DNA of 64,000 bases, from sequence record OQ845958.1; one strand, given 5' to 3'. The notes beneath the pieces are model-generated. The model had not been told where the DNA came from. It worked only from the letters and a program-made list of their open reading frames with translations, and made no database searches. Of this stretch, positions 21,948 through 28,975 are shown in pieces; position 1 is the first letter of the stretch, and each line of letters begins with the position of its first letter. The DNA is from Escherichia phage pEC-M719-6WT.2. The position numbers and the translations under genes were made by a program.

Positions 21948-22109
21948 ATGGCTAAGAAAGAAGTTAAAGTTGTTGATGGCTCCTCCAAACGCGCTGGTTA
22001 CAAGCGTGCGTCCAACAAGCGAATCAATCAGGTGACTGATAAACTTCAGGCTCGTGCTCGTGCGGTATTGCGTGCCGATGCAGCTTGCTTTGGTAAGCCG
22101 AAAGCATAA
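21948..22109 (+). CDS. small basic protein (53 aa), not in ORF track
   Basis: ATG ... TAA frame encoding MAKKEVKVVDGSSKRAGYKRASNKRINQVTDKLQARARAVLRADAACFGKPKA; followed directly by a strong terminator. Confidence 0.4.
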   Translation: MAKKEVKVVDGSSKRAGYKRASNKRINQVTDKLQARARAVLRADAACFGKPKA

Positions 22110-22112
22110 GTT

Positions 22113-22143
22113 CAGGGACTCTTCGGAGTCCCTTTTTTATTTT
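22113..22143 (+). terminator. intrinsic terminator (GGGACUC-UUCG-GAGUCCC + U-tract)
   Basis: agggactcttcggagtcccttttttatttt. Confidence 0.7.
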
Positions 22144-22153
22144 CCATAAAGGG

Positions 22154-22183
22154 GTTTACAACAGGGTTGGTCCAGTGCATAAT
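22154..22183 (+). promoter_or_regulatory. early promoter cassette (GTTTACAA ... CATAAT)
   Basis: ggggtttacaa, 17 nt, cataatgattccatactgagtta; leader nearly identical to the cassette at 46373-46420. Confidence 0.5.
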
Positions 22184-22224
22184 GATTCCATACTGAGTTA
22201 CACAATAAAACACTGGAGAATAAA

Positions 22225-22593
22225 ATGAAAATCAATCTTAACTCATACATCAAAGGTAAAGACCACGACGGTTACAAAGCCATTGAAACTAAAGAGATGC
22301 AATGGCACTTGTATAAAGAACAGTTTGAATTTGTTGGTTGCATGACTCCTGAAGGTCCTTCTGATGACTTCTCCTGGAAAATTATGGTAACAAACTTTTT
22401 TACTGGTGATACATACGAACTGAAAACTTTGATTTTGGGTAAGATTCGTTGTAAGACCTATGAAGATGAAGAAACTGGTTATTCTGAAGATGTTACATGG
22501 TATCAAAATGGTCGCACCACTGCAGACCTTCTGATTGAAAAAATGAAAGCTAAGGGTGAATTAAATTTAGATAATTGGATTAAAGTCGCATAA
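22225..22593 (+). CDS. hypothetical protein
   Basis: 122-aa ORF with GGAGAATAAA ribosome-binding site. Confidence 0.5.
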   Translation: MKINLNSYIKGKDHDGYKAIETKEMQWHLYKEQFEFVGCMTPEGPSDDFSWKIMVTNFFTGDTYELKTLILGKIRCKTYEDEETGYSEDVTWYQNGRTTADLLIEKMKAKGELNLDNWIKVA

Positions 22594-22597
22594 AACA

Positions 22598-22640
22598 GTT
22601 TACTTTGGTACAGGTTATGATATTATAAACCTGTACCAAC
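22598..22640 (+). promoter_or_regulatory. early promoter embedded in a 12-bp inverted repeat (promoter plus stem-loop cassette)
   Basis: GTTTACt TTGGTACAGGTT atgaTATTATaa AACCTGTACCAA; -10 sits in the loop of a perfect 12-bp stem. Confidence 0.55.
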
Positions 22641-22664
22641 AAATGAAAACAACTGGAGAATAAA

Positions 22665-23030
22665 ATGAACTACATCAACTTTGAACGCAAATATGTTTCT
22701 AACTGCATCCCAGGTTCTTCTGAAGTTATTTGCTTGTGGAAACATCAAAACGGTTCAGTGTGTGAAATTGAACAGTATATGACTCCTAACTACGTTTATA
22801 TGCGATTTGAAAATGGTATCACTCTTTCAATCACGATGGAAGGTTCGGTATTCAAAATCGCATTAGATGATGACTTCCGTGAGCGTGATTTAGGGACTCA
22901 TCCTTGCTGGAATGGTGTTAATCGCAAGCTTCTGGTTAAAACTTGGATTCGTCACATCCTGAGCAACAAAGCAAAACCTGAACACCTGGAAGCAATCTTT
23001 GATGTAGTTCTTAATGAATTTGATATCTAA
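22665..23030 (+). CDS. hypothetical protein
   Basis: 121-aa ORF with GGAGAATAAA ribosome-binding site. Confidence 0.5.
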   Translation: MNYINFERKYVSNCIPGSSEVICLWKHQNGSVCEIEQYMTPNYVYMRFENGITLSITMEGSVFKIALDDDFRERDLGTHPCWNGVNRKLLVKTWIRHILSNKAKPEHLEAIFDVVLNEFDI

Positions 23031-23067
23031 TCTTAAATGGGGCGAAAGCCCCCTTGAGGAAAATACT

Positions 23068-23355
23068 ATGTTTATGACTACTTACTTTGATACACGTAAA
23101 AATTTCTGTGAAGTTGTTTTCTCTAAAAAAGGTCTTAATGTTCCTGCTGGGTGTGAACCAACACGTGATTCCATTAAGAACTATGTTGATGTAGTTTGCC
23201 CACTAGAATTCCGGACTGTTAATGGACGCGATACTCTGGCAATCACCAAGCTTAGACGCGACATTGATATTGCCCCAATTGCAGCACGTGAAATTAATTC
23301 ATCTGATATTAATGGCGGTAATGTTAAATCACACGGTTTCCAGATGAGGTTCTAA
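23068..23355 (+). CDS. hypothetical protein (internal start of ORF-track 23014-23355)
   Basis: ATG preceded by GAGGAAAATACT; 95 aa. Confidence 0.45.
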   Translation: MFMTTYFDTRKNFCEVVFSKKGLNVPAGCEPTRDSIKNYVDVVCPLEFRTVNGRDTLAITKLRRDIDIAPIAAREINSSDINGGNVKSHGFQMRF

Positions 23356-23549
23356 TGAAATTATTCTTATCACAAACTGTTCAGTTAAAAGGTGTGGGTA
23401 TTCCTGGAATGATTTCAAAGGTCCTGCCTGCGTTTAAATTAGGCAATACCCAAATTAAAGAAGCATATGCAGTCTTGTGGGTTGATGGAACTGAAGACGT
23501 TCGCATGGGCGGTGAGTTGTCTGTAATCAAATGTTTAAAGCGAGGATAA
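23355..23549 (+). CDS. hypothetical protein
   Basis: 64-aa ORF, start overlapping the upstream stop. Confidence 0.4.
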   Translation: MKLFLSQTVQLKGVGIPGMISKVLPAFKLGNTQIKEAYAVLWVDGTEDVRMGGELSVIKCLKRG

Positions 23550-23550
23550 T

Positions 23551-23763
23551 GTGTTTAAGAAACTGATTCAGAAAATTTTGGGAACAGAAATGGTCGAAGT
23601 TACTTATCGCGTGACTGATGTAAGTCCATGGGCCCGAAATATTGAACCATATACTAAAACAATTAAAATGCTGAAATCTGATGGCGGATTATCTATTAAA
23701 GACCGTCTACCTGGTTATGGTCATTGGGCTGATGTGGATATTATCAGTGTCAAAGATGTCTGA
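23551..23763 (+). CDS. hypothetical protein (apparent GTG start)
   Basis: 70-aa ORF with GAGGATAA ribosome-binding site 5-7 nt upstream of GTG. Confidence 0.4.
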   Translation: MFKKLIQKILGTEMVEVTYRVTDVSPWARNIEPYTKTIKMLKSDGGLSIKDRLPGYGHWADVDIISVKDV

Positions 23764-24214
23764 GTTAGAAATAAGAAGCAATTTCCCGTGGCCATCATGT
23801 GCATTAAGTAACTTTGCCAAATGGCCTTTTGTTATGGAGGGTATCCAGTTTGGAGGTCTTGAAGGCTTCCTGCAAGGGTGCAAGGTGAGAAATGTTGAAC
23901 AACAAAAACGTATATTTGGGATGTCCGGATTGGCCGCCCAGCAAAGTGGAAGAGCTTATGCAAGAGCTGCGGACCGTGGGACGCTTTTCTGGCTTGGAAT
24001 TCCCTTTTCAAGATACTCTGCAGCATGGAAAGAGTTGTATACAAATGCATATTTTGAAGCAGCGCTTCAAAACAAAGGATTCCGCGATGCGTTACAATCC
24101 ACAAAAGGCAAAGTTTTAAAGCATTCGATGGCGAGCCACCTTACTGTTCATGATACAATATTGACTGAACAAGAATTTATTGACATACTTAACCAATTGA
24201 GAGATGCATTATGA
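23756..24214 (+). CDS. NADAR/YbiA-like domain protein (putative ADP-ribose N-glycosidase)
   Basis: 152 aa from internal ATG; SNFAKWP ... EGxQFxxLEGFLQGCK resembles the SNFAAWP ... SEHYFQAQK core of E. coli YbiA as I recall it. Confidence 0.5.
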   Translation: MSELEIRSNFPWPSCALSNFAKWPFVMEGIQFGGLEGFLQGCKVRNVEQQKRIFGMSGLAAQQSGRAYARAADRGTLFWLGIPFSRYSAAWKELYTNAYFEAALQNKGFRDALQSTKGKVLKHSMASHLTVHDTILTEQEFIDILNQLRDAL

Positions 24215-25035
24215 AACCCGTTATTTTAACAGATATTGATGGCGTATGTTTGTCATGGCAGTCTGGCTTACCTTATTTCGCCCAAAAATATAATTTACCC
24301 CTGGAACATATCCTTAAGATGATTCAGGACGAAAAATTTGTGACCCCTGGTAAACTTTTCAATTGTGATGAAGAGTTAGGCGCGCAGTTAATTGAAAAAT
24401 ATAACTGTTCAGACTTTATTCGCTATTTGTCTCCTTATGCGGATGCATTAAGGGTTATCAATAACCTCAAAGAGCAATATGATTTTGTGGCTGTTACAGC
24501 CCTAGGTGATTCCATTGACGCACGCTTGAATCGTCAATTTAACCTGAATGCTTTGTTCCCTGGAGCGTTTAAAGAAGTGATGATGTGTGGCCATACAGCC
24601 TCTAAAGAGGATTTGTTTCAGAAGGCAAAAGACAAATATAATGTCGTTTGTTATATTGATGACCTTGCCCACCATTGCGACCATGCGAGTGAAATTCTCG
24701 AGGTTCCGGTTTATTGGATGGCCCGCGGCGAACGTGATGCTATTCCTAAAACAGCTTCCAAAGTTTTTAATTGGGACGATGTTGCTGGACAGCTTAAACT
24801 GAAACACAAAGATGAACCGGTCAAACCAGAATTCACCCCAGATGAACTCCGTAAACTGGAAGAGCTGTTTCGTGAAACTCGACGCCTTCAACAACAAATG
24901 CAGCAAGGCTGGCAGCCTGGTCAACCGTGGACTCCTGGATATAATCCAGCATATCCATATCAATATGGCCAGCGTGTAGGTACTGGTATTGAATACTGGT
25001 ACAATCAACCGACCGGTGGCCAAGGGGGTAATTGA
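24211..25035 (+). CDS. HAD-superfamily phosphatase-like protein with Q/P/G/Y-rich C-terminal tail
   Basis: 274 aa; HAD motif I ILTDIDGV and motif IV YIDDLAHH; low-complexity C-terminal 50 aa. Confidence 0.55.
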   Translation: MKPVILTDIDGVCLSWQSGLPYFAQKYNLPLEHILKMIQDEKFVTPGKLFNCDEELGAQLIEKYNCSDFIRYLSPYADALRVINNLKEQYDFVAVTALGDSIDARLNRQFNLNALFPGAFKEVMMCGHTASKEDLFQKAKDKYNVVCYIDDLAHHCDHASEILEVPVYWMARGERDAIPKTASKVFNWDDVAGQLKLKHKDEPVKPEFTPDELRKLEELFRETRRLQQQMQQGWQPGQPWTPGYNPAYPYQYGQRVGTGIEYWYNQPTGGQGGN

Positions 25036-25313
25036 TGTTTGTCGTTCATACTATTTCTGACCGTGGTCCAACTACCACGATGGATTACGGTCATGTTAAT
25101 CAGTTTATTCGTCATGTGAATCATAATTACTCGTTTGATATTAATCCGGCTAAAGATAACCCCGTTTGGCGTGAATGCGTTGAGCAAGGATTTATCTATA
25201 TTCACTTCATGACCAAAATGAAACCAGACGGGGCAACTAAATTTGTGTTCACTTATCATAAGCGGCTGGATTTGCTTTTGGAAGACGTGGCATATAATAG
25301 AGTCAACGACTAA
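25032..25313 (+). CDS. hypothetical protein
   Basis: 93-aa ORF between HAD-like gene and ligase. Confidence 0.4.
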   Translation: MMFVVHTISDRGPTTTMDYGHVNQFIRHVNHNYSFDINPAKDNPVWRECVEQGFIYIHFMTKMKPDGATKFVFTYHKRLDLLLEDVAYNRVND

Positions 25314-25323
25314 GAGGTGATTA

Positions 25324-26856
25324 ATGATTTTAGATATTTTAAATGAAATTGCTGCAACCGATTCTACTAAAGAGAAACAAGCTATCTTGGAATCGTATTC
25401 TGATAATGAAACCCTTAAACGCGTGTATCGTTTGACATATTCCAAAGGCATCCAGTTCTATATAAAGAAATGGCCAAAACCTGGGGCAACGACTCAAAGC
25501 TTTGGTATGTTGAATATCGATGATATGCTTGACTTTATCGAATTCACATTAGCCTCTCGCAAATTAACAGGTAATGCGGCAATCGAGGAATTATCTGGTT
25601 ATATTGCAGATGGTAAAAAGGCTGATGTTGAAGTCTTGCGGCGTGTGATGATGCGTGACCTGGAATGTGGCGCATCTGTATCGATTGCGAATAAGGTTTG
25701 GAAAGGTTTAATTCCTGAACAACCGCAGATGCTCGCTTCTTCTTATGATGAAGCTGGTATTGCTAAGAACATTAAGTTCCCGGCCTTTGCACAATTGAAA
25801 GCCGATGGCGCTCGGTGTTTTGCAGAAGTTCGCGGCGATGAGTTGGATGATGTTCGATTGTTATCCCGAGCCGGAAATGAGTACCTCAAGCTTGACCTCC
25901 TTAAAAAGGAATTGATTGAAGCCACCCGTGAAGCGCGTGAGAGACATCCTGAGGGCGTTTTAATTGATGGCGAGTTAGTATACCATGAACAGAAAATAGC
26001 TCCCCAGAATGACGGTTTGGGCTTCCTTTTTGACGATTCAGATGAGATTGCTCCTGCAAAAGAAACTGCTGAATCAAGAACCTTTTCAAATGGTATGGCA
26101 AACAAATCATTGAAAGGAACTATTTCTGCAGCAGAAGCTTCTTGTATGAAATTCCAGGTTTGGGATTATGTTCCGCTGATTGAAGTCTATTCTGATGTTA
26201 AGATTCTCAATCCGTTGAAATACGATGTGCGTTTTGCTGTTCTGGAAAAAATGATTGCAGATAACGTGGTGCTGCATGGTTTTGACCGCATGATTCTGAT
26301 TGAAAACCATGTTGTTAACAATCTTGATGAAGCGAAAGTTATCTATAAGAAATACGTGGATGAAGGCCTTGAAGGTATTATCCTTAAGAACATGGCATCG
26401 ATTTGGGAAAACAAGCGCTCAAAGAACCTGTATAAGTTCAAAGAAGTAATTGACATTGCAATGGAAATCATTGGATATTACGAGCACGATAAAGACCCGA
26501 ATAAGATTGGCGGTGTGGTGCTTCGTTCTTCTTGTGGTAAGATTACAAATAACTGTGGTTCTGGTTTTAAAGACACAACTCAAGTCAAAGATAAGAAAAC
26601 CAAAAAATGGGTTACTATTCCGATTGAGGAGCGTCATGAAATGGACCGTGAAGCCTTGATGGTTAAAGCACGTAAAGGTGAATTGGTTGGAATGATTGCC
26701 GACTGTGAATGTAATGGTTGGTTGACTTCCGAGACTCGTAAAGATAATACGGTTGCATTGTTCCTGCCGATTATCAAAGGGTTCCGTTCCGATAAAGACC
26801 ATGCAGACACATTCGAAGATGTATTTGGCGACTGGTCAAAGACTGGATTAAAATAA
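25324..26856 (+). CDS. 30: ATP-dependent DNA ligase
   Basis: 510 aa; N-terminus MILDILNEIAATDSTKEKQAILE and adenylation-domain lysine context match T4 ligase from memory; GAGGTGA ribosome-binding site. Confidence 0.96.
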   Translation: MILDILNEIAATDSTKEKQAILESYSDNETLKRVYRLTYSKGIQFYIKKWPKPGATTQSFGMLNIDDMLDFIEFTLASRKLTGNAAIEELSGYIADGKKADVEVLRRVMMRDLECGASVSIANKVWKGLIPEQPQMLASSYDEAGIAKNIKFPAFAQLKADGARCFAEVRGDELDDVRLLSRAGNEYLKLDLLKKELIEATREARERHPEGVLIDGELVYHEQKIAPQNDGLGFLFDDSDEIAPAKETAESRTFSNGMANKSLKGTISAAEASCMKFQVWDYVPLIEVYSDVKILNPLKYDVRFAVLEKMIADNVVLHGFDRMILIENHVVNNLDEAKVIYKKYVDEGLEGIILKNMASIWENKRSKNLYKFKEVIDIAMEIIGYYEHDKDPNKIGGVVLRSSCGKITNNCGSGFKDTTQVKDKKTKKWVTIPIEERHEMDREALMVKARKGELVGMIADCECNGWLTSETRKDNTVALFLPIIKGFRSDKDHADTFEDVFGDWSKTGLK

Positions 26857-26857
26857 C

Positions 26858-26880
26858 AAAAGGGCTTCGGCCCTTTTTTA
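26858..26880 (+). terminator. intrinsic terminator (GGGC-UUCG-GCCC + U-tract)
   Basis: aaagggcttcggccctttttta after the ligase stop. Confidence 0.7.
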
Positions 26881-26914
26881 GTATAAATACATCATATTTT
26901 ATAAGGAACCTATT

Positions 26915-28975
26915 ATGTCTGAACAATTAAATGAACTCTTTGACAAATATATCGAAACCTTCGGTTATCCTGTCATTAATATGAATCCAAAATACAAGGT
27001 CCCACAGGTTTGGCAATTCGGTGTTCCTGGGACCAATTCTCTTATGGCCCGTTTGATGCAATTCACGGGCAAAGAAACAGTTAAACAATATAAACGCGGT
27101 GATGCAATTGCCGAGGTATTTCTGTTATCCGGAACTTCACACGGTCATGCTGTTCCTCTGAAGGGTGGTTTAGGTGAAAAACCTCTTGATGCAATTAACT
27201 TGATTTTTACTACAGTCTGGGAAAGCATTAAACTAGGCAAACCTGATGTAGTCTTGTTCCGTTTCCCATCCAAAAAGATGAAAGGACAAGACCAAGCTAT
27301 TATTCGTATTATGAATCGACTGATTCAAATGAAAACCAGCGGACGTTATCATGTTCTTCCGAATGCTTCTGGCCTTGGTAAAAAGAACGCTTATGTAATT
27401 ATGTACAAAAGGGGTGTTGACCTACTTTCGGTTGATGGTATGCCACCAGTCCCTGAGAAATATAAAAAAGTCGAAACTAAAGTTGGTGATGTATTCACCA
27501 ATAAAGATAATGGTGCACAAGTATCCAAACAAGAAATTGCAGCCGAGATTCTGATTGACGCAGCAAACAAAAAGACCGATGCTGCTGTTGCCCAGAAAAC
27601 GAAAATCAGCCGCCGAGCTATTGCACAAGCCCAGTACGCCCCAAGTGATTCCGTGCCAGAAGGTTGGGACGAAATTGATGCAGAAGCTGCTAAGTTTAGT
27701 CGCCCGGCTACGGCAGAACTTATCGATGATTATGAAGAACTGGAAATTTTTGTTCGACCTTCCGAAACGAATACTATGGCTCGTATGCGCGCAGCAGATA
27801 CGGCTATGCGAGCAAATGGTGTTTGGAAAGAAGAAATTCGTGTTGAAGACTCTGACCCAATTTTTAACCGTATGCATCGCGAACTTAAACGTGCTCCAGT
27901 TGGTAGTATGAAGCAGATGCAGATTTTTGCCGAATCATGCGCAGAGATTCTTAACCTTCGCAAAGCCGCATTTATTGAAAGAAAAATGAATGATGCTCCT
28001 CCTAACGTGGATGCAGCCACTTATGCAGCCTCGCTCTGGGAAAAAGAATACACAAGCGCCATTCGTGTTGCAGTTAAAGACTTTGCTGAAGAAGCATCAG
28101 AAAATACTCTTAATTTCACGGCAGGGTATACTGACAACCGTTTCCATTATGGTCAGCGAGAAGCAATTGCAGATTATTGTGGAGCAAACTATGCCGATAT
28201 TAATAATTATTTGATGGGCAAATATTATGAAGAAGAAGCTGAATTCCTAAATCTAGACAGAGTTGTCGAAACAATTAAGGAATTGGATTCGGCCTTTGAA
28301 ATTGGCCATAAGTTGCCACCTAATACAACTCTTTGGCGTGGTCAATATTTAAACGTTCCTACATTTGATAAAATTAAGAAATCTAAATTATTTTATTTCA
28401 GGAACTATGTATCAACGTCGTTTAAACCGATTATCTTTGGTGGCTGGGTGGCGAACGTTGCTATGGCTGCAGTTCATCAGGACTATCGTGATGGGACATC
28501 TTTCCAGGCTGATGACGAAATTGTTTTACCAGATATGCCGGAAGCACGCCGCGACCACGTAATGATGCATGTTGGTTGGAAAATTTCTGGGGCGGACTTA
28601 ATTAACGTAATTGTTCCTGGGGAATTGTCAGGCAACCCATCCGAGCAGGAAGTTATTCTTCCTCGTGGGACTGTAGTTAAGATTACCAAAATTACTGATG
28701 CTTCGTATCAAGGAAACGCGAACGTCAAAATGTTGGAAGCTGATATCCAGACTACGGACCAACTGGATGAAAATGCAGTTATCTATGATGGTGATGTGTT
28801 GATGGAAACTGGTGAGCTTGTCGTTTATCAGGGCGAGGAAACAGAAGAGCCAGTAGAATCTGTTGACTTTGCATCGTTTGCATCCTCTGGGGTAACGAAG
28901 AAAGTCAATCAAGGGCTTGGTATTCTTGCTAGTTGTATTAATTTGGAAGCTATTCCTCCCAAATTCCTTTCATAG
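26915..28975 (+). CDS. alt: ADP-ribosyltransferase Alt (virion-packaged)
   Basis: 686 aa, immediately downstream of gene 30 and upstream of 54/48 as in T4; size matches T4 Alt (about 682 aa). Confidence 0.8.
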   Translation: MSEQLNELFDKYIETFGYPVINMNPKYKVPQVWQFGVPGTNSLMARLMQFTGKETVKQYKRGDAIAEVFLLSGTSHGHAVPLKGGLGEKPLDAINLIFTTVWESIKLGKPDVVLFRFPSKKMKGQDQAIIRIMNRLIQMKTSGRYHVLPNASGLGKKNAYVIMYKRGVDLLSVDGMPPVPEKYKKVETKVGDVFTNKDNGAQVSKQEIAAEILIDAANKKTDAAVAQKTKISRRAIAQAQYAPSDSVPEGWDEIDAEAAKFSRPATAELIDDYEELEIFVRPSETNTMARMRAADTAMRANGVWKEEIRVEDSDPIFNRMHRELKRAPVGSMKQMQIFAESCAEILNLRKAAFIERKMNDAPPNVDAATYAASLWEKEYTSAIRVAVKDFAEEASENTLNFTAGYTDNRFHYGQREAIADYCGANYADINNYLMGKYYEEEAEFLNLDRVVETIKELDSAFEIGHKLPPNTTLWRGQYLNVPTFDKIKKSKLFYFRNYVSTSFKPIIFGGWVANVAMAAVHQDYRDGTSFQADDEIVLPDMPEARRDHVMMHVGWKISGADLINVIVPGELSGNPSEQEVILPRGTVVKITKITDASYQGNANVKMLEADIQTTDQLDENAVIYDGDVLMETGELVVYQGEETEEPVESVDFASFASSGVTKKVNQGLGILASCINLEAIPPKFLS

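Follow-up and report, generated by a model that had tools for sequence, protein, structure and literature searches.

An adfN (T4 gene 30.3) ortholog in a Gaprivervirus genome, predicted to encode a phage-type NADAR DNA ADP-ribosylglycohydrolase

The locus described here lies within a window of 64,000 nucleotides, the whole stretch of DNA that was analysed, from Escherichia phage pEC-M719-6WT.2 (OQ845958.1). At positions 23756..24214 of the plus strand, a reading frame that runs from an ATG at 23756 to a TGA at 24212-24214 encodes a product of 152 aa, as a first-pass annotation made from the sequence alone had proposed. This frame is confirmed by the match of its product to the Pfam family PF08010 (Phage_30_3, "Bacteriophage protein GP30.3"), which is far above chance (E=5.8e-64), covers profile positions 2-138 of 138, and reaches 214.5 bits against a curated gathering threshold of 36 bits. 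The product also matches PHROG 652. A mechanical list of open reading frames contains a longer, 177-aa version of the same frame that begins at an ATG at 23681. The start at 23756 is favoured because the alignment of 56 homologs begins at this residue (MSELEIRS / MDIGS), the T4 annotation uses the equivalent start codon for gene 30.3, and the ATG overlaps the stop codon of the preceding gene. This overlap of 8 nt (ATGTCTGA) is identical to the 8-nt overlap between 30.4 and 30.3 in T4 and suggests translational coupling.

The neighbouring genes are those expected of a T4-type locus. The gene with the overlapping stop codon is the ortholog of gene 30.4 (23551..23763, plus strand; 70 aa, PHROG 2042). 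At its other end, the gene shares its stop codon with the ATG of the gene 30.2 ortholog (24211..25035, plus strand; 274 aa, PHROG 420) in an ATGA, as it does in T4. DNA ligase (25324..26856) and Alt (26915..28975) are both encoded downstream on the same strand, in agreement with the first-pass description of the gene as lying upstream of the two. In a Pfam search, flanking ORFs matched the gp30.7 and gp30.8 families, and the order 30.8-30.7-30.6-30.5-30.4-30.3-30.2-30.1-ligase-alt is identical in the window, T4 and Escherichia phage ECML-359.

The product of the gene 30.2 ortholog is 66% identical to T4 gp30.2 and has a DxDGV motif of HAD-like type at its N-terminus (ILTDIDGV) and ends in a tail rich in Q, P, Y and G. 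Its ATGA overlap with gene 30.3 couples the two genes translationally. It has no match in Pfam or NCBIfam, and its similarity to the 5'(3')-deoxyribonucleotidase 2jao is sub-threshold and non-significant (E=0.27). Further upstream, the 30.9 ortholog is followed by a strong hairpin resembling a terminator (22114..22133, plus strand; AGGGACTC-TTCG-GAGTCCCT and then a run of T). Directly after the hairpin and ahead of 30.8 is the best promoter-like site, TTTACA-17-CATAAT (22155..22183, plus strand), which is a consensus match only. Together, the hairpin and the promoter-like site at 22114..22183 may mark the start of a transcription unit that includes gene 30.3. Consensus scans, however, returned 20 promoter sites where 15.7+-4.6 were expected from shuffled sequence and 6 terminator sites where 4.9+-2.4 were expected. 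Because neither number exceeds the shuffles, no conclusion is drawn on transcription.

A second ORF, 30.3' (23892..24119, plus strand; 75 aa), lies in the +1 frame within the gene. Its counterpart is annotated in T4 as "internal translation in a different reading frame", and the two are 64% identical with conserved length. Selection on ORF 30.3' was considered and rejected. The open +1 frame spans 76 codons, compared with a mean of 71 in synonymous-codon shuffles of the enclosing gene (p=0.34), and in distant homologs it is interrupted. The openness of 30.3' thus looks like a by-product of the sequence that encodes the larger protein.

Orthology of the gene to T4 gene 30.3, since renamed adfN, is clear; the phage is a Gaprivervirus, a T-even-like E. 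coli phage. T4 gp30.3 (NC_000866, 128307-128765) and the AdfN protein described here are of equal length and align without gaps, with 130/152 residues identical (86%) and 144/152 similar. Among the 22 substitutions, 14 are conservative. A megablast search with positions 22000-26900 matched 872 phage records, the best of which was ECML-359 (Tevenvirinae, Gaprivervirus) at 98.9% identity. In that genome, the gene is labelled "hypothetical protein, similar to T4 gp30.3".

The first-pass annotation had also attributed a NADAR/YbiA-like fold to the product. When the AdfN sequence was searched on its own, this relationship was not apparent. The protein itself had no match to the Pfam NADAR family PF08719 at E<=1, scored far below threshold against NCBIfam TIGR02464 (13.7 bits, cut-off 73.7), and matched nothing in PADLOC or, in a phmmer search with the single sequence, among PDB sequences. 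Since AdfN itself falls short of PF08719 at E<=1, the link to NADARs needs evidence from the family, from profiles or from structure. Each of these is available. A profile of 56 homologs searched against PDB sequences matched YbiA (2b3w) with E=0.0044 across the SNFA...E..FQ..K core, and hhalign aligned the AdfN family with E. coli YbiA at a probability of 93.9% (E=1.6e-7). PF08719 was matched individually by 18/55 members of the AdfN family, with a best E of 1.5e-7.

Structure prediction, which the first-pass annotation had proposed along with residue mapping, points to the same fold. An AlphaFold2 model of AdfN, built from 55 homologs with the T4 row left out, had a pLDDT of 94.4 and a pTM of 0.89. 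In a Foldseek search of the PDB, the top three matches to this model were all NADARs: YbiA 2b3w, the Phytophthora NADAR with ADP-ribose 8bau, and the DarG1-type NADAR of Geobacter lovleyi 8bat. All matches beyond these three had E>2. As in YbiA, the model consists of a helical core with small beta-hairpins on its flanks.

The residues attributed to catalysis in NADARs have counterparts in AdfN. The first motif recognized in the first-pass annotation, SNFAKWP, is present as S18-N19-F20-A21-K22-W23-P24. The second had been written as "E..F.QGCK"; the actual sequence, EGFLQGCK (E36-G37-F38-L39-Q40-G41-C42-K43), reads "E.F.QGCK", with one dot fewer, a trivial correction. AdfN thereby carries the E-x-[FY]-x-Q-x-x-K motif of NADARs, where the Glu contacts the ribose and the Lys the phosphate. 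In both hhalign and the profile search against PDB sequences, E36 (codon 23861-23863, plus strand) and K43 (codon 23882-23884, plus strand) are matched to the Glu and the Lys in "SEHYFQAQK" of YbiA. When the hhalign alignment is extended ungapped, H123 (codon 24122-24124, plus strand) falls on YbiA E125. E36 and H123 do not vary among the 56 aligned homologs, and conservation of K43 is at least 90%. All three residues are also kept in 79/79 complete viral loci from IMG/VR, which were retrieved with a search pattern that contained E and K, not H. Based on sequence and profile alignment together with the literature, E36, K43 and H123 probably form the equivalent of the NADAR active site. In addition, AdfN here retains all 18 invariant residues of the family. 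Its C-terminus is intact, with the frame open to residue 152, a helix at residues 138-151 in the AlphaFold2 model, and no gaps relative to T4.

De Souza and Aravind described the NADAR superfamily in 2012, with gp30.3 of phages as one of its branches, as cited in later work (PMC11543638, PMC11125620). This branch is now referred to as the "phage NADAR" branch, and its members have a His that replaces the Glu of YbiA and the Asp of DarG1 (PMC11543638, PMC11125620). Schuller et al. (2023) found that NADARs hydrolyse the guanine-ADP-ribose made by DarT1 and identified a Glu, a Lys and an Asp/Glu as essential (PMC11543638). T4 gp30.3 was subsequently reported to remove guanosine-ADPr, and not thymidine-ADPr, in vitro (Toxins 2024; PMC11125620). 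A 2026 study found that every NADAR family, the T4 protein included, removes G-ADPr. Guanine-ADP-ribose N-glycosidase activity has thus been described for the T4 ortholog in several reports (PMC11125620; PMC11825919; PMC12945103).

The physiological role of the T4 gene was described by Johannesman, Carlson and LeRoux (bioRxiv 2024; Nat Commun 2025;16:1598; PMC11257639, PMC11825919). In that work, the DarTG1 resistance of T-even phages was mapped by phage crosses to gene 30.3, which was renamed adfN. T4 AdfN is both necessary and sufficient against DarTG1, as shown for the T4 and T2 alleles by deletion and by ectopic rescue of RB69 (PMC11825919). The purified protein strips ADP-ribose from DarT1-modified DNA, and the substitutions E36A and K43A and an RB69-like C-terminal truncation each impair it (PMC11825919, PMC11257639). 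The weak RB69 allele is shortened by 15 residues and has lost the C-terminal helix (PMC11825919). AdfN activity does not require gp30.2 in T4. In uninfected E. coli, T4 AdfN fails to neutralise DarT1 (PMC11125620, PMC11257639), so that what it does in vivo depends on the context. The authors suggested that this activity is tuned to the hydroxymethylated DNA of T-even phages (PMC11825919).

Based on orthology, fold and residue conservation, the product of the gene in the window is very probably a minimal, core-only NADAR-fold N-glycosidase that acts as the anti-DarTG1 factor AdfN. In the proposed mechanism, the DarT1 toxin of a DarTG1-carrying host would ADP-ribosylate guanine in the phage DNA and block its replication. 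AdfN would then hydrolyse the N-glycosidic bond between guanine and ADP-ribose, freeing the ADP-ribose and rendering the DNA replicable again, and would in this way serve as a phage-carried "orphan antitoxin". Glu36 is predicted to contact the distal ribose and Lys43 the diphosphate, while His123 would stand in place of the third acidic residue (Asp in DarG1, Glu in YbiA). Full activity probably requires the C-terminal helix. Guanine de-ADP-ribosylation as a DarT counter-defence, which the first-pass annotation had put forward, is thus supported by way of the 86%-identical T4 ortholog (PMC11825919, PMC11257639, PMC11125620). This function, along with the experiments suggested at that time, is already published for that ortholog and is not new.

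Comparison with characterized systems places the protein firmly with the T4 enzyme. T4 AdfN (PMC11825919) has the same 152 aa, E36, K43, H123 and C-terminal helix and occupies the same slot between 30.4 and 30.2. It differs in that it comes from a Tequatrovirus, whereas the gene described here is from a Gaprivervirus. DarG1, known from E. coli C7 and from G. lovleyi (PDB 8bat), possesses an Asp where AdfN has His123 (PMC11543638), and additional N-terminal elements that form an electropositive channel (PMC12945103), in contrast to the core-only AdfN. DarG1 is also encoded beside its toxin and serves as the antitoxin of DarTG1, while AdfN is an orphan and, in the case of T4, gives uninfected cells no rescue from DarT1 (PMC11125620, PMC11257639). 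E. coli YbiA (2b3w) and the Phytophthora NADAR (8bau), of Pfam PF08719, are only 17-19% identical to AdfN. In addition, the YbiA family has a Glu on the last strand where AdfN has a His, and YbiA has been linked to swarming and to the detoxification of riboflavin intermediates. AdfA (the T4 gp61.2 family) and AdfB (from ICP1) are phage anti-DarT factors like AdfN. However, both are small proteins unrelated to AdfN that are thought to bind and block the toxin and not to act enzymatically on the lesion (PMC11257639). The target of AdfN, unlike theirs, would be the DNA lesion.

A further possibility concerns the Gaprivervirus allele itself. Its 22 substitutions might have shifted its specificity toward other hypermodified DNA or a DarT1 variant, or the protein might act jointly with the HAD-like gp30.2, its translationally coupled neighbour, in disposing of the ADP-ribose that is released. 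Nothing was found that points to either a shifted specificity or a partnership with gp30.2, which co-occurs with AdfN in 20/80 AdfN-family loci, and this possibility is considered very unlikely.

Within the T4-type gene order, alt lies 2.7 kb downstream of adfN on the same strand. Alt modifies proteins, on arginine. The first-pass annotation had hinted at a functional link between the two genes, and their closeness would fit a role for AdfN in the phage's own ADP-ribosylation, with alt as its module partner. In such a role, the enzyme would reverse or edit the marks made by Alt, ModA and ModB or clear soluble ADP-ribose-derived signals. Iyer et al. (2022) noted that NADARs are early-expressed along with ARTs in several T4-like phages and favoured soluble ADPr derivatives as their substrates (PMC9503650). 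The wider distribution of the family argues against this role. Among 80 AdfN-family loci on viral contigs, alt occurs within 4 kb in 14, and ligase or gp30.2 in 19-20. All of the loci with alt, ligase or gp30.2 nearby belong to T4-like relatives, while 60/80 share none of the T4 neighbours. Linkage to alt was therefore rejected as a property of the AdfN family. It reflects a lineage-specific gene order, and the closeness of adfN and alt is an inheritance of the T4-type arrangement and does not in itself indicate a functional module. The substrates also argue against the hinted link. The T4 NADAR was reported to act on guanosine-ADPr but not on thymidine-ADPr, whereas Alt targets protein arginine and not DNA guanine. 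In the summary table of the 2026 study, the phage NADAR is not listed as an enzyme that reverses cytidine-ADPr. Moreover, the DarTG1 phenotype suffices to account for retention of the gene (PMC11825919). A function in the phage's own ADP-ribosylation is accordingly given very little credence, and it could exist as a side function next to anti-DarTG1 activity instead of competing with it.

Two further explanations are both extremely improbable. In the first, the product would be a YbiA/riboflavin-type metabolic N-glycosidase that destroys reactive intermediates of the riboflavin pathway and does not de-ADP-ribosylate DNA. This conflicts with the far sub-threshold score against TIGR02464, with the invariant His of the family at the position of the Glu that defines the YbiA family (PMC11125620), and with the DNA guanine-ADPr hydrolysis and anti-DarTG1 phenotype demonstrated for the T4 ortholog (PMC11825919). 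The second, a decayed allele without function, has precedents in the frameshifted, truncated and fused gp30.3 alleles in public data and in the natural RB69 frameshift allele, which fails against DarTG1 (PMC11825919), but the gene in the window is full-length and gapless relative to T4, with the invariant residues and C-terminal helix kept.

The assignment of the gene as an anti-DarTG1 adfN is of value mainly for annotation and opens no new biological question. In the closest deposited genomes, the gene still appears as a hypothetical protein, even though name, fold, mechanism and phenotype have all been published for its T4 counterpart. The adfN label predicts that the phage would resist E. 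coli strains that carry DarTG1, a point of relevance to forecasting host range and to selecting phages for therapy.

Several defective gp30.3 alleles, either natural or assembly-derived, were encountered in the database. One of these (P0014) shifts into the 30.3' frame in mid-gene, and another (P0019) begins in the 30.3' frame and later shifts back. In a third (P0018), the N-terminus of gp30.7 is fused to the C-terminus of AdfN, implying a deletion of 30.6-30.4, and a fourth (P0015) ends at 89 aa. Together with the RB69 frameshift, these alleles suggest that the gp30.3 locus is often lost or broken. At the other extreme, AdfN homologs of 35-42% identity were found in IMG/VR (loci L020-L083), most of them without 30.x, ligase or alt neighbours of the T4 type and many on large contigs of 100-360 kb. 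The occurrence of these distant homologs in such contexts indicates that the AdfN family is widespread well beyond the T-even phages. One additional homolog (P0053) resides on a 4.5-Mb contig of Methylocystis bryophila and is possibly a prophage or bacterial copy.
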